Source of the DNA: an uncultured Thiotrichaceae bacterium | GTDB taxonomy: Bacteria > Pseudomonadota > Gammaproteobacteria > SZUA-229 | Assembly: GCA_964485705.1 (NCBI GenBank) | Contig: CAZALW010000001.1 | Coordinates: 1-55,063, forward strand | Direction: 5' to 3' | DNA: 55,063 nt | In this document: positions 3,791 through 47,859 of the stretch, piece by piece | Position numbering within the stretch: the stretch's first letter is position 1 | How the letters are laid out: the number at the start of each line of letters is the position of its first letter | The notes under the pieces: generated by a model | Database searches by the model: none | The model's input: only the letters and a program-made list of their open reading frames with translations | Told to the model about the DNA's origin: nothing | Position numbers and translations under genes: made by a program

Positions 3791-4403
3791 TTTCATATTC
3801 AATCAGCTTTTCACGGATTTGTTTTTGTACTTTTTTTAATTCAAGCGATGCATCAATCAGGCAAATTCGCTGAGGATGAAGATTAGCTAATTCAATATAG
3901 GCTTCACGTACACGCTGAAAAAAATCATCTTTTTCTGTTTCGATGCGATCAGGTTCACTTCGATGTCCGGCACGCGCACGACCTATTTCAACCGGTGCAT
4001 CGAGAATAATGGTTAAATCAGGGCGTAAATCACCCTGCACCCATTGCTCAAGATTACTGATTTTATCCACATCCAGCAACCGGCCACCGCCCTGATAGGC
4101 GTAGCTTGCTTCGGTAAAACGGTCACACATTACTGTTTTATTGTTTTCCAGTGCAGGCAGAATAACTTTTGATAAATGCTCAGCCCGCGCCGCAAACATC
4201 ATCAGCAATTCAGCGTCACTACTCATATTCTCGTCAGAATGGTTCAGTAACAAACCGCGCAACGCCTCACCAAGATTCGTCCCACCTGGCTCCCTGGTCA
4301 GCACACAGTCGTGCCCTGACGATTCAAGCAGTTCTTTTATGAATAGAAGGTTGCTGGTTTTCCCAACCCCTTCAATCCCCTCTAAAGTAATAAATTTACC
4401 CAT
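3777..4403 (-). CDS. tmk: thymidylate kinase
   Basis: P-loop GIEGVGKT directly after the Met at 4403. The 22 extra N-terminal codons in the ORF track (to 4469) only translate the GTGAATA heptamer array, so I trimmed the start. Confidence 0.85.
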   Translation of the reverse strand: MGKFITLEGIEGVGKTSNLLFIKELLESSGHDCVLTREPGGTNLGEALRGLLLNHSDENMSSDAELLMMFAARAEHLSKVILPALENNKTVMCDRFTEASYAYQGGGRLLDVDKISNLEQWVQGDLRPDLTIILDAPVEIGRARAGHRSEPDRIETEKDDFFQRVREAYIELANLHPQRICLIDASLELKKVQKQIREKLIEYEIINH

Positions 4404-4521: not shown

Positions 4522-5571
4522 TCACTGCTTTTTCCGCTGATATTTATCAACCGCTTTATTATGGTCTTTTAAATTAGTAGAAAACACATGCCGTCCACTG
4601 CCGTCGCTGTAAGAAACAAAATACAGGTACTTTGTTTTTTCCGGATTTAAGGTTGCATGTATGGCCTCTCTACCGGGTAATGCTATAGGCGTTGGTGGTA
4701 AGCCATGGCGTGTGTAAGTATTATACGGGGTATCTTTTCGTAAATCCCTGAAACGAATATTGCCATCATAGTTTTCAATGCCATAAATGACTGTCGGATC
4801 GGTTTGCAGGCGCATCTTTTTTCGTAAGCGGTTGACAAACACACCCGCAATGATAGTTCGTTCCTCTGCAACGGCACTTTCTTTTTCTACAATAGATGCC
4901 ATTGTTAATGCTTCATAAGGTGATTTATAGGGCAGACCTTTCTCTCTGCGTGCCCATTCCTGTCCAAGAATTTTTTCCATTACATTGTAAGCACGTTTAA
5001 GCAGCTCAATATCACTGGTGCCACGAGAAATATGATAAGTATCAGGGTAAAAGCGGCCTTCAGGGTGTTTGCCTTTATGTCCCAGTCTTTCCATAATCTC
5101 TTCATCAGAAAGATTTTTTAATTCTATTGTAAGTGCTGGATGTTGCTGAATTGTTTCCAGTATCTGTCTAAAGGTGAAGCCTTCTATGAAGGTAATGCTA
5201 TGTTGTATCACATTACCATCGACCATATTATCGAGTAGTCCGGCAAGCGTTAGTCCGGGTGTTAGCAGGTACTCGCCTGCCTGCAGTTTGGTCGCTTGAC
5301 TGTTCAATTTACCCCAAATAAGAAAATGATTTTTATGTTCAAGTAAATTTTTTTCAACAAGCTGATTTGCCAGAGTACGGATACTTGAACCACGGGGAAA
5401 AACTATTGTTTCTGGCTCGGCTAAAGACATTTCTGCGTGCATTTCTGCCTGGATTTTTAGCGAATAATAAAAAACAATGACTAATACAATACTGGAAATT
5501 GTAAATAGTGTGGCCAGCCCCTTGCCCAGGTTTTTACTCATGTTTTTACTAAAGGGCTTGAGCATAGGCAT
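4522..5571 (-). CDS. mltG: endolytic murein transglycosylase MltG (YceG-like)
   Basis: 349 aa with a single N-terminal TM helix and the YceG-like domain pattern. Conserved tmk-mltG-pabC synteny. The start may be the internal Met at 5541, which would remove the overlap with pabC. Confidence 0.75.
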   Translation of the reverse strand: MPMLKPFSKNMSKNLGKGLATLFTISSIVLVIVFYYSLKIQAEMHAEMSLAEPETIVFPRGSSIRTLANQLVEKNLLEHKNHFLIWGKLNSQATKLQAGEYLLTPGLTLAGLLDNMVDGNVIQHSITFIEGFTFRQILETIQQHPALTIELKNLSDEEIMERLGHKGKHPEGRFYPDTYHISRGTSDIELLKRAYNVMEKILGQEWARREKGLPYKSPYEALTMASIVEKESAVAEERTIIAGVFVNRLRKKMRLQTDPTVIYGIENYDGNIRFRDLRKDTPYNTYTRHGLPPTPIALPGREAIHATLNPEKTKYLYFVSYSDGSGRHVFSTNLKDHNKAVDKYQRKKQ

Positions 5572-7988: not shown

Positions 7989-8046
7989 AACCACGAAACA
8001 CACGAAACACACTAAAAGTTTCGTGTATTTCGTGTATTTCGTGGTT
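7989..8046. repeat. hairpin repeat whose arms are short tandem repeats (family F type)
   Basis: AACCACGAAACACACGAAACACAC ... GTTTCGTGTATTTCGTGTATTTCGTGGTT. Lies in the pabB-fabF spacer. Confidence 0.75.
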
Positions 8047-14674: not shown

Positions 14675-14840
14675 CTAGGAGCTTGTCCGAGAATGGAAAA
14701 CCTACTGCAAAACCGACATTTTTGCCCATTTTTCCGAACATTTTCGTTAAATAGCGGTGCTATTCGCCTCAAATGTTCGAAAAACTGGACTAAAAATCTC
14801 GATTTTTCGCTACGGTTTCCATTCTCGGACAAGCTCCTAG
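14675..14840. mobile_element. MITE-like element, family B (B1)
   Basis: Inverted termini CTAGGAGCTTGTCCGAGAATGGAAA ... TTTCCATTCTCGGACAAGCTCCTAG. Lies in the dnaJ-dnaK spacer. Confidence 0.8.
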
Positions 14841-14853
14841 TTAGCTTATAACA

Positions 14854-16928: not shown

Positions 16929-17049
16929 TAGGAGCTTGTCCAAGAATAGAAATCGTAGCGAGGGGAGAAGCTGATTTGAGTCAGATTTTTTCATTATTTG
17001 AGGCGAGTAGTGGTGCATGGATGCACCACTGCTCTCGGACAAGCTCCTG
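16929..17049. mobile_element. MITE-like element, family B (B2)
   Basis: TAGGAGCTTGTCCAAGAATAGAAATCGTAGCG ... CTCTCGGACAAGCTCCTGA. Lies in the dnaK-grpE spacer. The internal part carries a family-A-like palindrome. Confidence 0.75.
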
Positions 17050-22024: not shown

Positions 22025-22492
22025 CTAAAAACGTTTTAAAGATTCAAGTTTCTGGTTGGCATGATTGTAGGCTGTTTCATCATCTAAAACCATGCTTGCA
22101 TCGCGTATAAATGACCAGTTCAGTAATTGTAATTCAGCGTCTGAAAAGGCAAAACTATTGCTGCGTTTAGCCATCTGTACTGCACGCTCGGGTGCGTTCT
22201 CCTGTAACGCCAACCAGGACAAACGACTCCATGCAGGCGCATATTGCGGTTTGATGCGTAGTATGCGTTCAAGTTTGTCTGTCGCGGCATCAAACTCCTG
22301 ATTTATTATTAGTGTATCAACGTCATCCAGCAAACTGTTTATCGCACCATTGCCAATAGAGGGGTTCATTTGCCAGGCATTAAATTGATAATTTCCCGGC
22401 TGTTCAACAGCGGTGTCAATAATAAACTTTTCTGTTGAAGCACACGAAGCCAGTAACAGTAATAAAAACAGGCTGGATAATAGTCGATACAA
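22025..22492 (-). CDS. TPR-repeat lipoprotein
   Basis: TTG start at 22492 preceded by GGAG. Signal peptide with lipobox (LLLLASC). TPR-like C-terminal region. The ORF-track extension to 22714 reads through a repeat element and a duplicated copy of the same start region. Confidence 0.6.
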   Translation of the reverse strand: MYRLLSSLFLLLLLASCASTEKFIIDTAVEQPGNYQFNAWQMNPSIGNGAINSLLDDVDTLIINQEFDAATDKLERILRIKPQYAPAWSRLSWLALQENAPERAVQMAKRSNSFAFSDAELQLLNWSFIRDASMVLDDETAYNHANQKLESLKRF

Positions 22493-22529
22493 AACGTAAA
22501 ACTCCGAGGTTAATTCAAGGGCATCTTTT

Positions 22530-22683
22530 CTCGTTACCACGCACTGCGTGGTAATGCAGCGATTAACGCACCAGCGTTTCTGTAGAGACAGAGACAAGGC
22601 ATGCCTTGTCTCTACGTGCCTTGTTGCATCCCGTAACGCTGGTGCGTTAGCTACTGCGTTACCACGCGGTGCGTGGTAACGAG
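22530..22683. mobile_element. REPIN/MITE-like element, family D (copy D1)
   Basis: Terminal inverted repeats CTCGTTACCACGCACTGCGTGGTAATGCA / ...TTACCACGCGGTGCGTGGTAACGAG. Each end is itself a 9-bp-stem palindrome. Confidence 0.8.
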
Positions 22684-22746
22684 ATAAAAACAAACTGGAT
22701 AATAGTCGATACAAAGTACAAGACTCCGGGGTTCATTTTAAGGGCA
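22684..22746 (-). pseudogene. duplicated copy of the lipoprotein gene 5' UTR, RBS, TTG start and first ~10 codons
   Basis: Roughly 80% identical by eye to 22462-22523. The two copies are separated by repeat element D1. Confidence 0.7.
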
Positions 22747-25393: not shown

Positions 25394-25439
25394 CTGTTTA
25401 AAACCCGAAAAAGTGCTACTGTTAAACAATGTTAAACAA
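25394..25439 (+). promoter_or_regulatory. candidate operator of the RHH/ParE module
   Basis: Tandem TGTTAAACAA x2 (25420-25439) directly before the RBS, plus an upstream inverted-like TGTTTAAAAC (25394-25403). Confidence 0.35.
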
Positions 25440-25451
25440 AAGAGGTGCGTC

Positions 25452-25718
25452 ATGCTAGGTGTCCGATTAGAACCAGAACTGGAGCAGCGTCTGACGATAT
25501 TAGCGAAAAAAACAAAACGATCAAAAAGCTATCTTACTAAGGAAGCCCTGCGAGATTATATTGACCGATTAGAAAACCAGGAGAAACGACGACAAGAAAC
25601 ACTGGATCGCTGGGAGGCTTATGAACTAACGGGTAAAACGGTTGATCATAATTTGATGGCTAGTTGGTTAGAGTCCTGGGGCGATGATAAGGAAAAACCA
25701 TGCCCGACTACAAAATAG
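25452..25718 (+). CDS. ribbon-helix-helix (CopG/ParD-like) antitoxin
   Basis: ATG at 25452 preceded by AGAGGTG. N-terminal MLGVRLEPELEQRL..AKKTKRSKSYLTKEAL is a typical RHH motif. Overlaps the downstream toxin gene. Confidence 0.75.
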   Translation: MLGVRLEPELEQRLTILAKKTKRSKSYLTKEALRDYIDRLENQEKRRQETLDRWEAYELTGKTVDHNLMASWLESWGDDKEKPCPTTK

Positions 25719-25999
25719 AATGGTTATCCGAAGCAGCAAATGACGTAATCAGACTGAGAGAGTTCATAAATAAAGAAAATCCTCTAGCTGCAAAAAACGC
25801 TGGTCATCGAATTCTTAGTGCAGTTGATTTACTGACAAAAAATCCAGAGGCAGGAATGCCAAGCCCTGACCAAGACTGTGAATCGTTTAGAGACTTATAT
25901 GCTCCCTTTGGTAAAGGAGGATACACAATTCGTTATCGCATCAAACAACAGATAATTGTTATCGTTCGCGTCTGGCACAGCCGAGAAGATCGCGCTTAA
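25700..25999 (+). CDS. RelE/ParE-family toxin
   Basis: 99 aa with a ParE-like pattern, including the C-terminal VRVWHSREDR. Overlaps the RHH gene by 19 nt. Confidence 0.75.
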   Translation: MPDYKIEWLSEAANDVIRLREFINKENPLAAKNAGHRILSAVDLLTKNPEAGMPSPDQDCESFRDLYAPFGKGGYTIRYRIKQQIIVIVRVWHSREDRA

Positions 26000-26093: not shown

Positions 26094-27572
26094 ATGCCCC
26101 TTGACTACCAGACCCTTGAGGCACTCAGGCAAAACCACCCTGCCTGGCGTTTGCTTACCAGCCCTCATGCACCTTTAATAGCCAGTTTTTTATCGATGGT
26201 TTTTGTCGATAAAAATGTACGGGTGATGCCGCAGGCCGATTTGATAGAAGCACTGGAAGATGAATTATTTCATTTGCGGGAAATACTGGGCGACGATGCG
26301 TTTCCTAAATCTGCGCTAAATTATTTGAATGACTGGGCAGCAGCAGAAAAAGGCTGGCTACGAAAATTCTATCGCCAGGATTCTGATGAGGTACAGTTCG
26401 ACTTAACCCCGGCAACCGAAAAAGCCATCGCCTGGCTGGAGAATCTCAGCCAGCGTAACTTCATCGGCACTGAATCACGATTACTGACATTGTTTGAATT
26501 GCTGCGCCAGCTCAGCGAAGGCAGCGATGACGATCCACAAAGCCGCTTGCAGGAATTGCAAAAACGTCGTGAAACCATTGATGCTGAAATTGCACAGGTG
26601 GCGCTGGGCAATGTCACCCTGCTGGATGACACCGCTTTAAAAGACCGTTTCATGCAATTTAACCAGCAGGCTCGCGAATTGCTTTCTGACTTTCGCGAAG
26701 TTGAACATAATTTCCGCCAGCTTGATCGCCGCGTGCGTGAGCGCATTGCCAGTTGGGATGGTAAAAAAGGTGAATTATTGAGTGAAATCATGGGCGAGCG
26801 CGATGCCATTGCTGATTCCGATCAAGGTGCCAGCTTTCGTGCCTTTTGGGACTTCCTGATGTCACCCCAGCGTCAGCAAGAATTCAGCGAACGGCTGGAT
26901 AAAGTGCTGACATTATCAGCGATAGTGGAATTAAAACCCGACAAACGTACGCGCCGCATACATCACGACTGGCTTGAAGCCGGTGAATTCACACAACGCA
27001 CAGTGGCACAGTTATCCCAGCAATTACGCCGTTTTCTTGACGATCAGGCATGGCTGGAAAATCGCCGTATTATGGATATTCTGCATGGCATTGAAAGCAA
27101 AACCCTGCAAATGCGAGACAATCTATTTGCCTCACCTACTAGCAATGAATTTATCAGCATTGACGCTTTATCCAGCAGTATCGAACTGCCCATGGAACGG
27201 CCACTATACCGCCCGCCAGTCAAACCAAAAATCACCAATATCCTGTTGCAGGACGGTGATGAAAATCTTGATGCCAGCGCTCTATACAGCCAGAGCGTTG
27301 TCGACAAGGCTGCCATTGCCAGTCATATTCGCCAGTCTTTACAGCAACACTCACAGGTATTGCTGTCTGAGTTATGCCAGACACAACCGCTAAAACAGGG
27401 ATTGGCTGAACTTCTTGCCTACCTTGAACTTGGCAATGAAGACGGCTCTGGCGGACGCTTTACACTGCTGATTAACGATGAAATTGAAGATATAATCAGC
27501 TGGACAGGCGAAGATGAAAAACAACGCCGGGTTAGAATGCCACGTATGATTTATTTGCGTCCTGCAGGCTGA
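26094..27572 (+). CDS. jetA: Wadjet JetA (DUF3375-like, kleisin-type subunit; MksB-like)
   Basis: 492 aa. The N-terminal pattern (PAWRLL...PLI.SFL...F....V.....L...L...L..LR.....FP..A..YL.DW......WLRKFY...SDE..FDLTPA.EKAI.WL..L....FIGTESRL) matches my recollection of DUF3375. First gene of a four-gene operon with the typical Wadjet size order. Confidence 0.85.
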   Translation: MPLDYQTLEALRQNHPAWRLLTSPHAPLIASFLSMVFVDKNVRVMPQADLIEALEDELFHLREILGDDAFPKSALNYLNDWAAAEKGWLRKFYRQDSDEVQFDLTPATEKAIAWLENLSQRNFIGTESRLLTLFELLRQLSEGSDDDPQSRLQELQKRRETIDAEIAQVALGNVTLLDDTALKDRFMQFNQQARELLSDFREVEHNFRQLDRRVRERIASWDGKKGELLSEIMGERDAIADSDQGASFRAFWDFLMSPQRQQEFSERLDKVLTLSAIVELKPDKRTRRIHHDWLEAGEFTQRTVAQLSQQLRRFLDDQAWLENRRIMDILHGIESKTLQMRDNLFASPTSNEFISIDALSSSIELPMERPLYRPPVKPKITNILLQDGDENLDASALYSQSVVDKAAIASHIRQSLQQHSQVLLSELCQTQPLKQGLAELLAYLELGNEDGSGGRFTLLINDEIEDIISWTGEDEKQRRVRMPRMIYLRPAG

Positions 27573-27575
27573 TAA

Positions 27576-27640
27576 CTAGGAGCTTGTCCGAGAATAGAAA
27601 TCGTAGCGAAAATCACAAAGAAGCCATAAGGTGAGTTGCC
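27576..27640. mobile_element. family B element, left half only (B3)
   Basis: CTAGGAGCTTGTCCGAGAATAGAAATCGTAGCGAAAA... starts 3 nt after the jetA stop. The right terminus is missing and the element abuts element C. Confidence 0.65.
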
Positions 27641-27752
27641 CTCGTTCACACGCTCCCGCGTGGGAATGCATACTAAACGCTCCACTGACACTGGTAAGTA
27701 TGTGGCTAACAAACAGCAGGTATGCATTCCCACGCAGGAGCGTGGGAACGAG
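27641..27752. mobile_element. REPIN/MITE-like element, family C (related architecture to D)
   Basis: Termini CTCGTTCACACGCTCCCGCGTGGGAATGCATAC ... GTATGCATTCCCACGCAGGAGCGTGGGAACGAG. Confidence 0.75.
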
Positions 27753-27754
27753 AA

Positions 27755-27845
27755 CAAGATATAATCAGCTGGACAGGCGAAGATGAAAAACAATGCCGGG
27801 TTAAAATGCCGCGTATAATTTATTTACCTGCTGCAGGGTTGATGA
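27755..27845 (+). pseudogene. relic duplicate of the jetA 3' end
   Basis: 75/84 nt identical to 27486-27569 by hand alignment. Sits between a repeat insertion and jetB. Confidence 0.8.
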
Positions 27846-27882
27846 ACATTTATCGTAACTTCTCAATACATATAAAACGCAA

Positions 27883-28551
27883 ATGCAAACAAAAAACCAA
27901 AACCCTTCCAGCGAAAACACAGCCACAGCGCAGACCGACCTGAGCCGCCTGCTGGTGGTATTATTAAAAGGCATTCTGTATAAGGAAGACGACAGCAAAC
28001 GCTGGGCTGATTTGCTGGAACTGCAAAACCAGGTGAGAGATTATGTGTCCATTATCGGGCTGGAATTACACCTGGATGAGGCAGAAGCTTATGCCTTTTT
28101 ACGCAGCCATCAGGAAGACGATGAAGACACCGAAACCAGTGACCCTGGTCAGATAAACAACTCAGGCAATGCCATTCCACGCCTGATAAGCCGCAGACAA
28201 CTGTCTTTCCCGGTCAGTTTGCTGCTGGCATTGTTGCGAAAAAAGCTGGCAGAATTTGATGCCACCGGTGGCGATACCCGGCTGATTTTAAGCCGCGACA
28301 ACATGGTTAATCTAATCCGGCTATTCCTGCCCATTAGTAGCAACGAAGCCAAACTGGTGGATCAAATCGAACGCCATATAAACAAAATAGTAGAGCTGGG
28401 TTTTTTGCGGCGCTTAAAATCAGCCACAGCAGGCAGCCAGCCCAGTTACGAAGTACGGCGAATTATCCAGGCCTTTGTCGATGCAGAATGGCTGGCAGAA
28501 TTTGATGCTAAACTTGAAAGCTATCGACAACTGTTAAACAACAATGACTAA
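27883..28551 (+). CDS. jetB: Wadjet JetB (DUF4194-like; MksE-like)
   Basis: 222 aa. LLKGILYKEDD..W..LL.....VRDY....GLEL.LDEAE.YAFLR matches the DUF4194 pattern. Its stop overlaps the jetC start by 8 nt. Confidence 0.85.
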   Translation: MQTKNQNPSSENTATAQTDLSRLLVVLLKGILYKEDDSKRWADLLELQNQVRDYVSIIGLELHLDEAEAYAFLRSHQEDDEDTETSDPGQINNSGNAIPRLISRRQLSFPVSLLLALLRKKLAEFDATGGDTRLILSRDNMVNLIRLFLPISSNEAKLVDQIERHINKIVELGFLRRLKSATAGSQPSYEVRRIIQAFVDAEWLAEFDAKLESYRQLLNNND

Positions 28552-31500
28552 AACAATGCCCACTCAACCTGTTGCATTAGGTCTCGATTTTACTGACGAT
28601 AACGCACTGAGCGGTTACCGGCTAAAAAGACTTGAAGTACTCAACTGGGGTACCTTTAATGACCAGATCTGGACATTAAATCTGGATGGAAAAAACTGCC
28701 TGCTCACCGGTGATATTGGCTCTGGAAAATCCACTCTGGTCGATGCGGTCACCACCCTGCTGGTGCCTGCCAACAAGGTAGATTATAACAAAGCCGCCGG
28801 TGCTGAAAAGAAAGAACGCCATCTACGCTCATACGTACTGGGTTATTATAAATCGGAACGCAATGAAACCACCGGTAAAGCCAGACCCGTTGCCCTGCGT
28901 AATCAGAACAGCTACTCGGTGATACTCGGCGTATTCTACAATCAGGGCTACGATCAGACCGTTACCCTGGCACAGGTATTCTGGATGAAAGAGTTGCAGG
29001 GGCAACCTGAACGCTTTTTTATAGGTGCTGAAAAAGCACTTGGCATTAAACAGGACTTCGCCCAGTTTGGCAGCGAAATTAACGCACTGCGTAAACGCCT
29101 GCGCAAAACCGGCTGCGAGGTGATGGATCGATTCCCTCAGTATGGTGCCTGGTTTCGTCGCCGTTTTGGTATTGATAACGATCAGGCACTGGATTTATTT
29201 CACCAGACGGTGTCGATGAAATCAGTCGGCAACCTAACCCAGTTTGTACGTGGTCACATGCTGGAACCGTTTGATGTCACGCCACGCATCAAAGCCTTGA
29301 TAGAACATTTCGATGACCTGAACCGGGCACACGAAGCGGTTTTAAAAGCCCGCAGTCAAATAGAAAAACTAAACCCGTTAATTAGCGATTGTGACCAGCA
29401 TCAACAGCAAAATCATGAGGTCGAGACTTTACGCCAAAGCCGTGAAGCACTGGCAAGCTATTTTGCCGGGAAAAAACTACAGTTGCTGGAACAACGTCTG
29501 CAGCGCCTGCAACAGGATCTTGACCGACAACATAACAAAGTAGAAAAACTTGGCTCAGAAGAGCAGCAACAACAATATCAGCAACAGGAATTAAAACAAC
29601 AAATTGCCGATAATGGCGGCGATCGTATCGCTCGCCTGCAACAGGAAATTGATCAATTACAACGTGAACGTGAACGTCGCCATGATAAAGCCAGACGCTA
29701 TCGCGACCTGTCAGAGCCTCTGGCTCTGCAAACTGTGGACAATGCTGACGATTTTTTGCAACAACAAAATACCTTGCAGAAAAAACAAACACAATTACAG
29801 CAACAACAGGCGGATAACAACAACCAACTGCGTGAAATCGAGTTTGATTTTTTGCGCAAAAAAGAACAGTACAATACGCTCAAGCAAACCATTAAAGATC
29901 TTAAATTACGACAAAGCAATATCGAACAGAATCAAATAAATATTCGCCAGCTGTTATGCCAGGCACTGTCGCTGGATGAAAATGAATTACCTTTTGCAGG
30001 TGAGTTATTGCAAGTACATGAAGAAGATAAAACATGGCAAGGCGCTATTGAACGTCTGATGCATAATTTTGCTTTATCCATGCTGGTACCGGACGAGCTT
30101 TATAGCCAGGTCGCAGAATGGGTAGACCAAACCCGTCTACGCGGTCGTCTGGTGTATTTTCGAGTGCTAGCAAAAACGCAAGTCACGCAGGCATCCGCAC
30201 AGCCAGACTCGCTAATACGAAAAATTGCCATTAAACCGGATTCGGCATTTTACCCCTGGCTGGAACAGGAATTGTTTCGCCGTTTTGATGTTGCCTGTTG
30301 TGAAACCCAACAACAGTTTCGCCGCGAAAAACGCGCCATTACACGTAACGGACAAATTAAATTCTCCGGCGGTCGTCATGAAAAAGATGACCGCTTTACA
30401 CTCAATGATCAAAGCCGTTTTGTACTGGGCTGGAGCAATAAAGACAAAATCAACGCACTGGAAAACGAGGCAAGGCAACAAGAAAGAAGCATGGCTGACC
30501 TTGGCTTAAACATCAGTAAATTAAAACAACAGGAACAGCAGATTAACGACACCTTAAATACCATCAGCAAACTGGAGGAATACCGTGATTTTCAGGAGTT
30601 AGACTGGCAACCGCTGGCGCGACAAATTGCTGACAAACAAAATGAGCTGAAACAAATAGAATCTGCATCCGACCTGTTACAAACCCTGACTCAAAAATTA
30701 AAAGTACTGGCACAACAATATGTCGAAATTTTACAAAAGCTGGATCAGGTAAAAGCTGAACGGGCAAAAACCGAGCAAAAAATTGACGATGCCAGACAGC
30801 TACAACAGGACACGGCTGCGCTTATTGATGAGAGCCAGGCAAAACAACAGCAGCACTATTATGCAAACCTGGAACAACAGCAACAGGCAATGGATGAACA
30901 TAGATTAACCGTTGAGTCCTGCGATAATCAACAGCAACTTATGCGTAAATGGCTGCAGGAAAAAATTGATGCACAGGACAGAAAAATCAGTCGTTTGCAG
31001 GAAAAAATTGTCAAAGCCATGAGCGAGTACAAAAACAGTTACAAACTGGAAACGCAGGAGGTTGATGCAGCGGTAGAAGCAGCAGCCGACTACCGGCAAA
31101 TGCTGCTAGCACTACAGGCGGACGACCTGCCCCGCTTCGAGGCACGTTTTAAAGATTTGCTCAATGAGAACACTATTCGTGAAGTTGCCAACTTTCAATC
31201 ACAACTGCATCGTGAGCGCGAAACCATTAAAGAGCGCATCGCTCAAATCAACGATTCCCTGACACAAATTGATTACAACCCCGCTCGTTATATCACCCTG
31301 GAAGCGCAGCCCACTCAGGATGCGGATATCCGTGATTTCCAGACCGAATTACGCGCCTGCACCGAAGGCGCACTAACCGGCTCAGAAGACGAACAGTATT
31401 CAGAAACCAAGTTTTTACAGGTTAAACACATTATTGAACGCTTTCGAGGTCGTGAAGGACTCAGTGAACAGGACAAACGCTGGACAAACAAAGTCAGTGA

Positions 31501-31939
31501 TGTGCGTAACTGGTTCAGCTTTGCCGCCTCAGAACGCTGGCGCGAAGATGACAACGAGTTTGAACATTATTCAGATTCAGGCGGCAAATCCGGTGGTCAG
31601 AAAGAAAAACTGGCGTATACCATTCTGGCTGCCAGCCTGGCGTATCAATTTGGCCTGGAATGGGGCGCCATTCGCTCCCGTTCCTTCCGCTTTGTGGTGA
31701 TTGACGAAGCCTTTGGTCGTGGCTCGGATGAATCGGCTGACTATGGACTCAGACTGTTTGAACAATTAAACCTGCAACTGCTGATCGTTACTCCATTACA
31801 GAAAATTCATATCATCGAGCCCTATGTTGCCAGTGTCGGTTTTGTCCACAACGAAGGTGGTCGCACATCGAAACTTCGCAACCTGACTATCGAAGCCTAC
31901 CATCAGGAAAAAGCACAACTGCTGAATGCCAAAAAATAG
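28544..31939 (+). CDS. jetC: Wadjet JetC (SMC-like ABC ATPase; MksF-like)
   Basis: 1131 aa. Walker A GDIGSGKST (28709-28735). Central coiled-coil-type region rich in Q/E/K/L/R (my estimate >600 aa). Signature-like SGGQKEK (31589-31609). Walker B FVVIDEAF (31691-31714). Confidence 0.9.
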   Translation: MTKTMPTQPVALGLDFTDDNALSGYRLKRLEVLNWGTFNDQIWTLNLDGKNCLLTGDIGSGKSTLVDAVTTLLVPANKVDYNKAAGAEKKERHLRSYVLGYYKSERNETTGKARPVALRNQNSYSVILGVFYNQGYDQTVTLAQVFWMKELQGQPERFFIGAEKALGIKQDFAQFGSEINALRKRLRKTGCEVMDRFPQYGAWFRRRFGIDNDQALDLFHQTVSMKSVGNLTQFVRGHMLEPFDVTPRIKALIEHFDDLNRAHEAVLKARSQIEKLNPLISDCDQHQQQNHEVETLRQSREALASYFAGKKLQLLEQRLQRLQQDLDRQHNKVEKLGSEEQQQQYQQQELKQQIADNGGDRIARLQQEIDQLQRERERRHDKARRYRDLSEPLALQTVDNADDFLQQQNTLQKKQTQLQQQQADNNNQLREIEFDFLRKKEQYNTLKQTIKDLKLRQSNIEQNQINIRQLLCQALSLDENELPFAGELLQVHEEDKTWQGAIERLMHNFALSMLVPDELYSQVAEWVDQTRLRGRLVYFRVLAKTQVTQASAQPDSLIRKIAIKPDSAFYPWLEQELFRRFDVACCETQQQFRREKRAITRNGQIKFSGGRHEKDDRFTLNDQSRFVLGWSNKDKINALENEARQQERSMADLGLNISKLKQQEQQINDTLNTISKLEEYRDFQELDWQPLARQIADKQNELKQIESASDLLQTLTQKLKVLAQQYVEILQKLDQVKAERAKTEQKIDDARQLQQDTAALIDESQAKQQQHYYANLEQQQQAMDEHRLTVESCDNQQQLMRKWLQEKIDAQDRKISRLQEKIVKAMSEYKNSYKLETQEVDAAVEAAADYRQMLLALQADDLPRFEARFKDLLNENTIREVANFQSQLHRERETIKERIAQINDSLTQIDYNPARYITLEAQPTQDADIRDFQTELRACTEGALTGSEDEQYSETKFLQVKHIIERFRGREGLSEQDKRWTNKVSDVRNWFSFAASERWREDDNEFEHYSDSGGKSGGQKEKLAYTILAASLAYQFGLEWGAIRSRSFRFVVIDEAFGRGSDESADYGLRLFEQLNLQLLIVTPLQKIHIIEPYVASVGFVHNEGGRTSKLRNLTIEAYHQEKAQLLNAKK

Positions 31940-31978
31940 AATGATTGCAACTACTCCGCAGCAGCAAAAAATAAACAG

Positions 31979-32112
31979 ATTCACCACTAAGTTCACCAAG
32001 TTCACGAAGAAAAATGATTGTAAATGTTCAACACAATTTAATGTGGCATATATTATGTACCATGACCAATATACTTTAAAACTTCGTGGTCTTCGTGTAC
32101 TTCGTGGTAAAT
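31979..32112. repeat. family F-type hairpin repeat (CACGAAG subtype)
   Basis: ATTCACCACTAAGTTCACCAAGTTCACGAAG ... CTTCGTGGTCTTCGTGTACTTCGTGGTAAAT. Same subtype as 47739-47859. Confidence 0.75.
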
Positions 32113-32121
32113 CATTTTAAT

Positions 32122-32343
32122 CTCGTTACCACGCACTGCGTGGTAATGCAGGAGCTAACGCACCAGCGTTACATCAGAAAGACAAGAACCCCAATATCAA
32201 TACCAGCACAATAGTCTGCCACAACAATAACACTGAGAATAAGCATGGGACGCAGCCACTCAATATGGCATAGACCCGATATTCGAGACATTTTAACGCT
32301 GGTGCGTTAATCACTGCATTACCACGCAGTGCGTGGTAACGAG
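32122..32343. mobile_element. REPIN/MITE-like element, family D (copy D2)
   Basis: Same termini as D1 (CTCGTTACCACGCACTGCGTGGTAATGCA ... TGCATTACCACGCAGTGCGTGGTAACGAG), with a different internal sequence. Confidence 0.8.
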
Positions 32344-32346
32344 CCA

Positions 32347-32442
32347 AACGAAGATGGTCGCAGCTCCAAACTTCGCAACCTTACAATTGAAGCCTATCAC
32401 CATGAAAAAGCACAACTGCATGAACGCCAGACAAAAGGATGA
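32347..32442 (+). pseudogene. relic duplicate of the jetC 3' end with fossil stop/start overlap onto jetD
   Basis: 63/73 nt identical to 31850-31922. Its reading frame ends in a TGA (32440-32442) that overlaps the jetD ATG (32439-32441). Confidence 0.8.
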
Positions 32443-33653
32443 ATAACACAACATGCTCCTGGGGTAATAAAAAATCACTGTTAAAGCAGTTGCAAAAATT
32501 ATGGGATAACGGTGCGCTACTAAAAGAAATCGAGTGGCAAAGTGATTTTTTTCCAAAACGATTGCGTTTTAACACGCCAAACAGCAAAGCACTGAGTAAT
32601 GATTTTGAGGCTGTACGTAATTGGGTGAACGACATACAAAAACTACACGGTTTCCGCATTGTTTATAAAACAGTGCGCCACCCGGTCATCGGTAAAAATC
32701 GCGTACCTGATCAAGTCTGGATTGACAGCATAGACATCGCCATTACCCTGCTCAATAAACAGAAACAGGTAAATATATTTTTAAGCCTGCTTGAACAGAC
32801 AAAAACACACACACCTGAAGTTATCGAATGGCTAAAAAAGCACCCGTTAAAAGCACTGTCACTGGCTGACTCCTGGGCAAAACTACTGGATTTTATACGC
32901 TGGCGACAACAGCACCCCTCACCCGATATATACCTGCGTCAGGTCAGTCTGGCCAATATCGACAGTAAATTTATCGAACAACACCGCGCCGTGCTGGCAC
33001 AATTATTAGACCTGGTTCTAACCGATGAACAGATAAATAATAAAAAAACCGGCATTAAACAGTTCGAAGTACGTTATGGTTTTCGCAGCAAGCCAGAAAA
33101 AATTCGCTTTCGCCTGTTAGACAACAAACTGGCTCAGTCACCGGCTCTATTGCCTGGAACTGATTGTGATTACAGCATCACTGCAGATGATTTTCAGCAG
33201 CTTGCCAAAAATTCTGACTTTGTCTCACACATCAAACGCGTTTTTATTACTGAAAACGAAATCAATTTTCTCAGTTTTCCAGCACAAAAAAACAGCCTGG
33301 TTATTTTTGGTTCGGGTTATGGTTTCGAGGCACTGGCAAAAGCACAATGGCTATCACAGTTAACTGTTTTTTACTGGGGCGATATCGATAGCCACGGCTT
33401 TGCCATACTTGACCAGCTACGTAACAAATTTCCTCATGTACAAAATCTGTTGATGGATGAAACAACATTACTGAAACACCGTGAATTCTGGGTGTACGAA
33501 CCAAAACCGGAAAATAGAGTACTACAGCGGCTTACTGCCAGCGAGCAAAAACTTTATCAGGCGCTTGTGGACAATCAATATGCCCAACATTTACGACTGG
33601 AACAGGAAAGAGTTGAATATAAATACCTGTTAAAGGTGTTAGCCAACACGTAG
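32439..33653 (+). CDS. jetD: Wadjet JetD (DUF3322 + DUF2220/Toprim nuclease; MksG-like)
   Basis: 404 aa. The C-terminal region carries a Toprim-like acidic motif ITENEINF (33252-33260) and WGDIDSHGF (DxD, 33378-33398). Last gene of the operon. Confidence 0.85.
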   Translation: MNNTTCSWGNKKSLLKQLQKLWDNGALLKEIEWQSDFFPKRLRFNTPNSKALSNDFEAVRNWVNDIQKLHGFRIVYKTVRHPVIGKNRVPDQVWIDSIDIAITLLNKQKQVNIFLSLLEQTKTHTPEVIEWLKKHPLKALSLADSWAKLLDFIRWRQQHPSPDIYLRQVSLANIDSKFIEQHRAVLAQLLDLVLTDEQINNKKTGIKQFEVRYGFRSKPEKIRFRLLDNKLAQSPALLPGTDCDYSITADDFQQLAKNSDFVSHIKRVFITENEINFLSFPAQKNSLVIFGSGYGFEALAKAQWLSQLTVFYWGDIDSHGFAILDQLRNKFPHVQNLLMDETTLLKHREFWVYEPKPENRVLQRLTASEQKLYQALVDNQYAQHLRLEQERVEYKYLLKVLANT

Positions 33654-47738: not shown

Positions 47739-47859
47739 TATTCACCACGAAGCTCACGAAGGACACGAAGATGGAACTAAATGTATCATCAAAACTGAAC
47801 GAAATGTTTTGCCCATTAATGTTAATTCCTTCGTGTTCTTCGTGAACTTCGAGGTGAAT
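47739..47859. repeat. family F-type hairpin repeat (CACGAAG subtype)
   Basis: ATTCACCACGAAGCTCACGAAGGACACGAAG ... CCTTCGTGTTCTTCGTGAACTTCGAGGTGAAT. Lies in the exbB-comEC spacer. Confidence 0.8.

Follow-up and report, generated by a model that had tools for sequence, protein, structure and literature searches.

The type I Wadjet operon of an uncultured Thiotrichaceae bacterium raises the question of how two overlapping genes can be separated by an insertion and both survive. The window (the whole 55,063-nucleotide stretch of DNA that was analysed) carries a complete JetABCD system of four co-oriented genes, all of full length according to Pfam and to near-complete coverage of the PADLOC profiles JetA1, JetB1, JetC1 and JetD1. 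JetA contains DUF3375, JetB is a DUF4194/MksE protein, JetC is an SMC-like ATPase and JetD consists of DUF3322 and JetD_C. The jetC gene (28544-31939, forward strand) encodes a complete protein of 1131 residues with the Pfam domains AAA_29 and SbcC_Walker_B, and JetC1 covers residues 13-1125 of the 1131. The jetD gene (32439-33653, forward strand) is likewise complete, its 404-residue product being covered by JetD1 over residues 7-403. Both genes thus stay whole despite about 400 bp of hairpin repeats in their overlapping junction.

The final ~90 nt of jetC are the upstream copy of a duplicated junction. The two copies align by blastn over 96 columns (31850-31944 and 32347-32442) with 83.3% identity and E=6e-21. 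Local alignment adds 'CCA' at the left, which defines copy X (31847-31944, forward strand) and copy X' (32345-32442, forward strand), aligned with a single 1-nt gap. The core of this repeat had been reported in the first-pass annotation as a recurrence of 31850-31922 at 32347-32419, 497 nt further downstream, and 63 of the 73 nucleotides are indeed identical. Copy X provides the functional jetC 3' end. Copy X' is a relic that terminates in an ATGA overlap with jetD, the TGA at 32440-32442 overlapping the ATG at 32439-32441, as had been noticed. The annotation recognized this fossil overlap in the downstream copy and overlooked a second relic ATGA (31941-31944, within the GAATGA of 31939-31944) in the upstream copy, together with the loss of one nucleotide after CTGC (31922/31923). 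Copy X reads CTGC-TGAA where the relic and the related operons read CTGC[A/T]TGAA. Owing to the resulting frameshift, JetC acquires a different tail, LLNAKK*, that ends at a TAG codon (31937-31939). The relic has an open frame running from a GTG at 32329, inside the adjoining repeat arm, to the TGA ending at 32442, which JGI annotates as a 37-residue gene. As a result of the insertion, jetD has probably lost direct translational coupling to jetC.

The duplication does not extend into the coding start of jetD. An extension pairing 31945-31978 with 32443-32482 seemed plausible by eye and with MAFFT, but 450 of 2000 shuffles scored equally well and it was therefore dropped. The unassigned 33-nt spacer at 31945-31977, situated between copy X and the F-type element, accordingly has no significant similarity to the start of jetD.

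The insert is composed of two inverted-repeat elements, both of which had been described before and are real. The F-type element (31978-32115) is built of 9-nt units (CTTCGTGnn); further copies at 7992-8043 and 47746-47853 have no flanking duplication. The D element (32122-32343) has two inverted arms of 50 nt (32122-32171 and 32294-32343) that are 92% complementary, and its right end adjoins relic X'. Each arm contains a REP hairpin, ACCACGC-nnn-GCGTGGT, and the element has the ends CTCGTT...AACGAG. The insert folds with -81.7 kcal/mol (z=-10.8). Between 31940 and 32346 there is no open reading frame of at least 60 residues with a family match and no integrase or transposase; no Rfam family scored above threshold in the insert, and a scan of it for promoters and terminators gave nothing over background.

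REPINs are non-autonomous hairpin elements mobilized by a REP-associated tyrosine transposase (RAYT). The D element is a true REPIN, having paired inverted REP hairpins, multiple copies, and the same arms around a RAYT gene in a related metagenome-assembled genome, MC-11. This gene (open reading frame 4401-4940 of contig L006) sits between D arms and matches NF047646 with 99.9 bits (cut-off 80), with a weak PDB match to TnpArep (4er8); the evidence for a cognate RAYT thus comes from MC-11 and not from the source genome itself. Outside the window, arms of the D subfamily occur in MC-11 only, with copies on contigs L005 and L006. An identification of the element as an IS1634-like MITE was rejected, since no full-length IS was found to have these ends and the arms surround a RAYT instead. 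A further 20 kb of the source genome (L131 and L133) contain no additional REPIN. The pair of repeats around the RAYT in L006 may represent flagellin paralogs.

The junction is uninterrupted in six related operons (L002, L003, L004, L128, L129 and L130), four of which have the 4-nt ATGA overlap. The downstream copy therefore has the ancestral type of junction, as the annotation had supposed. A corresponding empty site between jetA and jetB, with a TGATG overlap, is found in L002. The relatives are 9-25% diverged, so that none of them offers an empty site from the same species.

The same arrangement is found at every REPIN of this type in the window. There are exactly three elements with CTCGTT...AACGAG ends and exactly three short-range direct repeats, each of which brackets one element. 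The repeats are 96-98 nt (jetC/jetD), 82-90 nt (jetA/jetB) and 63 nt (start of a lipoprotein gene) long, with E values from 1.5e-9 to 2e-26 and identities of 83%, 91% and 82.5%, respectively. The three REPINs interrupt former coding overlaps or gene ends. MITEs and F elements elsewhere in the window lack such flanking repeats.

At the second site, the functional 3' end of jetA (copy X, 27487-27575, forward strand; jetA, 26094-27572) is followed by the left terminal repeat only of a MITE (27574-27612, CTAGGAGCTTGTCCGAGAAT...), full copies of which lie at 14677-14843 and 16929-17049. The E REPIN next to it (27641-27752) is of a sister type, CTCGTT-CCCACGC-nnnn-GCGTGGG...AACGAG. The relic of the jetA 3' end (copy X', 27756-27846, forward strand) is 91% identical to the functional copy and has a 1-nt insertion and R>C and R>P changes; the native spacer and jetB (27883-28551) come next. 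At the third site, the functional copy (22462-22528, reverse strand) comprises the 5' UTR of a TPR lipoprotein gene (22025-22492, TTG start) together with its first 11 codons, and departs from L004 at a single position among 46 aligned. A second copy of the D REPIN (22530-22683) separates it from the relic of the gene start (22684-22746, reverse strand), which is 82.5% identical and has ~9 lineage-specific changes.

This was further seen in MC-11, where both transposase-free D copies on L005 are bracketed by duplicated gene 3' ends, of 111 nt at 96% and of 162 nt at 84% identity. The latter pair grows to ~230 nt if a shared REP and the end of the neighbouring gene are included. The IDH pair on L005 shows one difference over its first 85 nt. 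In all cases the copy still joined to its gene resembles the consensus, and most of the lineage-specific changes are in the opposite copy. Since duplications surround each of the three REPINs in the contig and the two transposase-free ones of MC-11, in unrelated genes, the cause lies with the element and not with Wadjet. The earlier proposal that recombination between Wadjet alleles or paralogs gave rise to the duplication is thus not sustained.

In the wider REP family, among 25 complete REPINs with adequate flanks, flank-to-flank similarity was found only in the window and in L005, with one further marginal case. About 20 complete REPINs on other metagenome contigs, which share the REP core but differ in their arms, have no flanking repeat. 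Two apparent further examples were set aside: the L068 repeats represent the regions upstream of Rpn-like paralogs, and those in L071 are a RAYT 3' end plus a REP.

Of the phenomena described so far, insertion with long target duplication (Nobusato et al. 2000, Gene 259:99; Furuta et al. 2010, PMC2853133; Lim et al. 2012, PMC3457768) comes closest. It is characterized by repeats of more than 30 bp that often span start or stop codons, an insert lacking a mobility gene, and an intact target gene (PMC2853133; PMC3457768). The published inserts are mostly kilobase-size restriction-modification genes with nearly identical repeats, one of them inserted into an operon, and the 2012 paper states that the mechanism was 'not yet' recognized for short DNAs (PMC3457768). 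The present sites resemble these in having empty sites in relatives, variable-length repeats longer than 30 bp derived from a single-copy target, an insert devoid of mobility genes, and a spanned stop or start. They differ in that the insert consists of a REPIN and small repeats and is tied to one element family, and in that the repeats of jetC, jetA, the lipoprotein gene and L005 (83%, 91%, 82.5%, and 96% and 84%) are not near-identical.

IS1634 and IS1549 are IS elements whose target duplications are long and vary in length. Such elements are reportedly also treated in a review of the IS4 family. Target repeats of variable length, well above 10 bp, are common to these and to the present sites; however, these ISs have a DDE transposase and ends of their own, and here neither such a transposase nor a matching full-length IS was seen. 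Duplications of 19-26 bp are attributed to a Mycoplasma transposon in the account given by PMC2853133. The REPIN/RAYT system (Nunvar et al. 2010, PMC2817692; Bertels & Rainey 2011, PMC3116915, PMC3337134) is matched by two inverted REP hairpins, a variable spacer, dispersed copies, and a RAYT that, in a related genome, has these REPs on both sides. Its elements are described as extragenic and its IS200-like relatives as transposing without target duplication (PMC2817692), whereas the copies studied here lie within what were once coding overlaps, with 63-230 nt of duplicated target to either side.

The explanation that we favour, and to which we give about an even chance, is a duplicative, gene-preserving insertion of the REPIN and a subsequent exchange of alleles in an operon that recombines. 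The REPIN would have inserted into the translationally coupled jetC/jetD junction, with the F hairpin element arriving at the same time or later, and the insertion would have copied ~98 bp of the target. The upstream copy would then hold the end and stop codon of jetC, and the downstream copy the ribosome-binding context and start codon of jetD. With the end of one gene and the start of the other each on its own copy, an insertion otherwise fatal to one of the overlapping genes leaves both intact. The upstream copy may later have dropped one base by drift, altering only the variable tail of JetC, while the downstream copy would have turned into a relic. Homologous exchange among diverged operon alleles could then have replaced the sequence of the functional upstream copy as far as the insert, where homology ends, leaving relic X' as a fossil of the earlier resident allele. 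The duplication itself might be made by long staggered breaks, or by re-replication at a stalled fork during single-strand insertion. That this RAYT/REPIN subfamily inserts by a route routinely duplicating 60-230 bp of its target is a more tentative proposition, which we consider less likely than not.

Some observations run against the favoured explanation. The half MITE between jetA and its REPIN calls for an extra deletion. The repeat pairs are 83-96% identical, and none of the relatives is close enough to show that they started out identical. No allele matching the jetC relic was found among the six relatives, nor any closer JetD lineage in the databases, so that neither donor nor resident allele is at hand. 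The ~20 REPINs of the same core but different arms, with their unduplicated flanks, and the duplication-free descriptions of Y1/IS200-type transposition (PMC2817692) point the same way.

The invocation of allelic exchange stems from the manner in which the copies of the jetC end diverge. The 10 differences within the 73 nt fall on codon positions 1, 2 and 3 in the numbers 0, 2 and 8, with six synonymous codon differences; the third-position and synonymous counts and both translations are as first quoted. The third-position bias is no product of hand alignment. After polarization with six outgroups, nine of the ten fall on the relic branch, seven of these at third positions. The relic has only three amino-acid changes, all of them found in natural JetC alleles, it keeps all conserved JetC residues, and its 96 nt contain no stop or indel. 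Under neutral decay the relic-branch pattern has a probability of 0.005 for the third positions, 0.01-0.03 for the amino-acid changes and stops, and ~0.002 jointly. Such coding-like divergence is best explained by homologous exchange among diverged alleles.

The main alternative, unlikely in our view yet a genuine contender, is the same duplicative insertion with no allelic exchange: the copies would have been identical at birth, the relic would have decayed neutrally, and the third-position excess would be due to chance. Two other relics do look neutrally decayed, as the jetA relic is frameshifted and carries the radical changes R>C and R>P, and the IDH relic of L005 has lost the conserved MRPS..LN residues. 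The latter had been considered as a natural allele, and was rejected as such because of that loss. The jetC pattern could consequently be the extreme of about five comparisons, and it was, moreover, picked out because of the pattern itself. When the functional copy is taken to be constrained and the relic neutral, a null under which ~45% of differences fall on third positions, 8 of 10 has P ~0.03 and the pooled counts 10/9/27 have P ~0.04. The third-position excess in the jetC relic is real, but modest after allowing for ~five comparable relics, and is suggestive rather than conclusive. Against neutral decay stand the relic-branch counts and the probabilities of ~0.002-0.005 given above.

The operon alleles form a patchwork with several switches of nearest relative, one of them near 31600, just upstream of copy X. 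The annotation had conceived of the locus as a mosaic with its breakpoint at the repeat; the mosaicism is borne out, the breakpoint is not. The distance between the window and L002 is unchanged across the jetC/jetD junction. A drop of identity to L003 at jetD (70%, sliding window) was examined as such a breakpoint and discarded, because L003 is divergent from all other alleles there; the loss of affinity to L003 begins near 31600 and mostly reflects L003 as an outlier. The diverged L004 lineage occurs together with this strain in sample 3300033050, and a ComEC homologue is present.

These signs of exchange are also compatible with a one-step recombination, the principal idea of the annotation, in which the two copies were different alleles from the outset; we hold it to be improbable. 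A diverged allele with repeats downstream of its jetC would have recombined by a homologous crossover in jetC and an illegitimate joint at the REPIN end, either as homology-facilitated illegitimate recombination or as a tandem duplication that afterwards recombined with a diverged locus (PMC3457768). It would account directly for the coding-like divergence, for the REPIN end lying against the relic at all sites, and for the truncated MITE at the jetA site, most easily understood as the joint of two different alleles; the flagellin N-terminal pair around the RAYT of L006 is also coding-like (16/11/29, P=0.003). However, one step requires a donor with jetD already disrupted, and five independent events at unrelated genes that each left both genes intact. 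Both jetC copies share the junction type GAAyGCCArAmAAA..ATGA, unlike L003 and L004. The youngest pair (96%) resembles fresh in situ copies, as does the IDH pair over its first 85 nt. At the five joints, neither microhomology with the REPIN terminus (GGTAACGAG) nor a target motif similar to it was significant (summed-score P=0.29).

An assembly artifact, in which reads of two co-occurring strains were joined at a multi-copy repeat, was a natural concern for a metagenome, as repeats often break or misjoin assemblies and L004 shares a sample with this strain. It is very improbable. The exact 1131-residue JetC with its new tail and the exact JetD each occur on four contigs, a JGI contig is base-identical across 11 kb, and in a contig assembled from a different sample the genes are spaced alike from end to end (54723 against 54724 nt). 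Three sites and an independent genome would require identical errors repeated with the reading frames always preserved. Least credible of all is a remnant of a site-specific integrative element with attL/attR and a replacement jetC 3' end, or the template/variable repeat pair of a diversity-generating retroelement: a functional in-frame, element-proximal gene-end copy and a displaced, diverged copy do flank inserted DNA as in integrated islands, and template/variable repeats also lie at gene 3' ends beside hairpins, but the inserted DNA amounts to only 400 bp and is made up of dispersed repeats that also occur at other places in the contig, with no integrase, other recombinase, reverse transcriptase or family-matching frame, the neighbouring open reading frames include no reverse transcriptase, the five insertions have unrelated targets rather than a fixed one and no significant similarity between REPIN end and target, and a single one of the nine relic substitutions (G>A, C>G, A>C, G>T, T>A, C>T, C>T, T>C, G>T) is from A, so that the mutagenesis is not adenine-specific.

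To our knowledge, it is still unknown how REPINs move, and a REPIN family bracketed by a long target duplication at every observed copy would be a concrete clue to the insertion chemistry, be it long staggered breaks or re-replication at a fork. Duplicative insertion of the REPIN would extend insertion with long target duplication, so far mainly a matter of restriction-modification genes, to small non-coding elements. Routine duplication of 60-230 bp, if true, would set this subfamily apart from the single-strand transposition without duplication that is assumed for Y1 transposases. REPINs could then colonize gene ends and overlapping, translationally coupled junctions without killing the genes, leaving dated 'fossil' gene ends that record earlier alleles; with closer genomes, such small fossils could be used to date the insertions and to expose the replacement of alleles within a population that recombines. 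In the Wadjet operon, a defence system of overlapping genes has absorbed insertions at two of its three junctions with all four genes intact.

A complete type I Wadjet operon is encoded in the window: Pfam and PADLOC, the latter with near full-length profile coverage, both recognize jetA (26094-27572), jetB (27883-28551), jetC (28544-31939) and jetD (32439-33653). The 3' end of jetC is present twice. The repeat reported by the first-pass annotation, 31850-31922 against 32347-32419 with 63 of 73 nucleotides identical, was recovered; with one 1-nt gap it reaches 31944 and 32442 (96 columns, 83%, E=6e-21). The copies have no significant similarity past the ATGA, which limits the supported duplication (site C) to 31847-31944 and 32345-32442. 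The downstream copy, a relic abutting jetD, does end in GGATGA, its TGA (32440-32442) overlapping the jetD ATG. The upstream, functional copy also contains a relic of the junction (GAATGA, 31939-31944) and has lost one base after CTGC, both of which had been overlooked. This loss shifts the frame, so that JetC terminates in LLNAKK at a TAG, whereas the relic and the related operon L002 have a terminal ...L(H/L)E(R)Q... type of tail. Because JetC tails past EKAQL vary freely among 60 homologues, the altered tail is probably harmless. The relic is open from a GTG within the REPIN arm to the ATGA (32329-32442), where JGI called a 37-aa gene; if translated, this frame could re-establish translational coupling to jetD.

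Three parts make up the insert between the copies: 33 unassigned nucleotides, an F-type inverted repeat (31978-32115), and a type D element of 222 bp whose inverted arms are 50 nt long (32122-32343). The insert folds much better than shuffled sequences (z=-10.8), and searches for known RNAs and for promoter or terminator signals within it found none. The 222-bp element is a true REPIN: the REP hairpin ACCACGC-nnn-GCGTGGT is present in each arm, and in the related MAG 'Gammaproteobacteria bacterium MC-11' an ORF situated between two such arms matches the NCBIfam model of the REP-associated tyrosine transposase (RAYT) with 99.9 bits (cut-off 80 bits). Of all loci fetched, only the window and MC-11 have the long-arm subfamily (TAACGCACCAGCGTT).

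The duplication is no peculiarity of Wadjet. Self-comparison of the whole window gave only three short-range direct repeats, a pattern search gave only three REPINs with the ends CTCGTT...AACGAG, and the two sets coincide one to one. At site B, the 3' end of jetA (27487-27575) is duplicated at 27756-27846 (91%), the two copies being separated by a MITE left end and a REPIN of the sister type E (27641-27752) immediately 5' of jetB. At site A, 22462-22528 is duplicated at 22684-22746 (82.5%) across the second D REPIN; the repeated stretch covers the 5' UTR of a TPR lipoprotein gene together with its first 11 codons. Both MC-11 D REPINs that lack a transposase are likewise bracketed by direct repeats, one pair (111 nt, 96%) at the 3' end of a minus-strand gene and the other (162 nt, 84%) at the 3' end of monomeric isocitrate dehydrogenase (IDH). 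The IDH duplication reaches about 230 nt, since the "spacer" to the left of the REPIN copies the native downstream REP and the first 20 nt of the convergent gene. In all cases the gene is intact by way of the copy joined to its body, and the REPIN end abuts the other copy. No significant microhomology was found at the REPIN/target joints. About 20 complete REPINs on metagenome contigs, having the same REP core and other arms, showed no flanking repeat; the duplication is thus, so far, restricted to this subfamily or host lineage. Nor were flanking repeats of this kind found at the F elements, the MITE family or another REP family in the window.

The structures in the window and MC-11 resemble the "insertion with long target duplication" described by the Kobayashi laboratory, mainly in naturally competent species, in which an insert without mobility genes, judged against an empty site in a related genome, is bracketed by long, variable direct repeats of the target (PMC2853133). 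They differ in that the repeats here are not near-identical. The IS200/IS605-type elements, which are relatives of RAYTs, are described as generating no target duplications (PMC2817692), unlike the REPINs found here, and no mention of flanking duplications was found in the REPIN literature searched. In six related operons (jetC nucleotide divergence from the window 9-25%, JetC protein identity 80-92%) the insertion is absent and the jetC-jetD junction is uninterrupted, being a 4-nt ATGA overlap in four and arranged otherwise in two.

The structure is best read, with about equal confidence and doubt, as a REPIN insertion that was duplicative and preserved the genes, with subsequent drift and, probably, allelic replacement of the functional copy. 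The REPIN would have inserted duplicatively at a gene junction or gene end, leaving the genes intact, after which the duplicate copies would have drifted apart. The data allow the functional jetC copy to have been overwritten by an imported tract that ended where homology stops, at the insert; the relic would then be a fossil of the earlier resident allele.

The divergence of the copies had been described as coding-like. Of the 10 differences in 73 nt, eight indeed lie at third codon positions, two at second and none at first; six of the differing codons are synonymous, and both peptides read as originally quoted. Polarization with six outgroups assigns nine differences to the relic branch, seven of them at third positions. 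The relic's amino-acid changes (G>D, T>S and Q>H) all occur in natural JetC alleles, and it has no stops or indels in 96 nt. When nine random substitutions were simulated on the inferred ancestor, at least seven third-position changes arose with P=0.005, at most three amino-acid changes without a stop with P=0.01-0.03, and both together with P about 0.002. Under a fairer, unpolarized null that constrains one copy and leaves the other neutral, 8 of 10 has P about 0.03, and the pooled counts of four copy pairs (10/9/27 by codon position) have P about 0.04. The third-position bias is therefore genuine, and simple decay would be unlikely to produce it, but it comes from one comparison in about five and the other relics differ: that of jetA has a frameshift together with R>C and R>P changes, and that of IDH has lost the conserved MRPS..LN residues. 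That the insertion arose in the same way and the bias is due to chance is a serious, if rather unlikely, alternative. In the IDH pair (L005 3208-3706, in MC-11) the differences are strongly clustered: the first 85 nt hold a single one, the last 75 nt about 25. Such a distribution is not that of clock-like decay; the 5' part may have undergone gene conversion, or there may have been a local mutational event.

The suggestion that Wadjet alleles are mosaics is borne out. The operon is clearly a patchwork, the nearest relative of the window shifting along the jetC/jetD alignments with L002, L003, L004 and L128-L130. L003 is nearest over jetC 28544-31600 (6-9% different; L002 11.5-13.5%), L002 and L003 are equidistant over 31601-31922 (10.2%), L002 is nearest in the first 200 nt of jetD (13.9%; others at least 25.7%) and L004 in its last 500 nt (14.4%). 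From these alignments recombination in the operon appears frequent; a diverged lineage, that of L004, shares one sample with the window strain, and there is a ComEC homologue. A single recombination step between diverged alleles, joined illegitimately at the REPIN, is improbable. The breakpoint proposed at the repeat is not demonstrated, because L003, whose jetC tail and jetD start are unlike all other alleles, is the outlier at the start of jetD, the distance between the window and L002 stays level across the junction, both jetC copies have a junction sequence of the L002 type, the relic's states occur in none of the alleles sampled and no JetD lineage closer to the window was found in the databases. 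The change of affinity lies about 250 nt upstream of the jetC copy.

An assembly artefact deserves scarcely any credence. The exact JetC, new tail included, and the exact JetD each recur on four contigs, a JGI contig is base-identical across the region and a contig from a different sample matches the gene spacing over the entire window, making an assembly chimera very unlikely. A remnant of an integrative element, or a diversity-generating retroelement pair, is less credible still.

At site A (22025-22732, minus strand), the frame stays open from a TTG in the distal relic (22714) through the whole D REPIN into the lipoprotein gene, so that a product with a 70-residue N-terminal extension is formally possible. 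In MC-11 locus L006, a RAYT gene with its REPs separates an intact flagellin gene from a 52-codon relic of a flagellin N-terminus. This pair (3856-4011 and 5271-5426; 69% identical, differences 16/11/29 by codon position) may be either an old duplicative insertion or a tandem-paralog remnant.

Toxin-antitoxin cassettes of different families (relB/parE-like, phd/yoeB, hicAB, parD, tacA-GNAT and higB) are situated at or beside junctions of this Wadjet operon in different lineages (window 25413-25999; L003 2667-3175; L004 2817-3223; L129 1-1302; L130 9275-9586). In L003, jetB and jetC are separated by the phd/yoeB cassette, on whose flanks about 24 nt of the jetB-stop/jetC-start overlap are repeated in diverged form; this is a smaller version of the gene-preserving insertion seen at the REPINs. 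In L128 an IS110-family transposase gene (101-1309) lies directly 5' of jetB, at the expected place of jetA.

The F family, with further copies at 7992-8043 and 47746-47853, is built of 9-nt units CTTCGTGnn (11 matches, where chance predicts 0.27) and is a candidate MITE or protein-binding array. A MITE family with terminal repeats CTAGGAGCTTGTCCGAGAAT is found at 14677-14843, 16929-17049 and 27574-27612; the last copy, past the jetA stop, is a left end alone with the E REPIN directly after it. Just past the right end of the window (L131 8159-8262), a 7-nt unit is tandemly repeated about 15 times between two UDP-glucose dehydrogenase-like genes.
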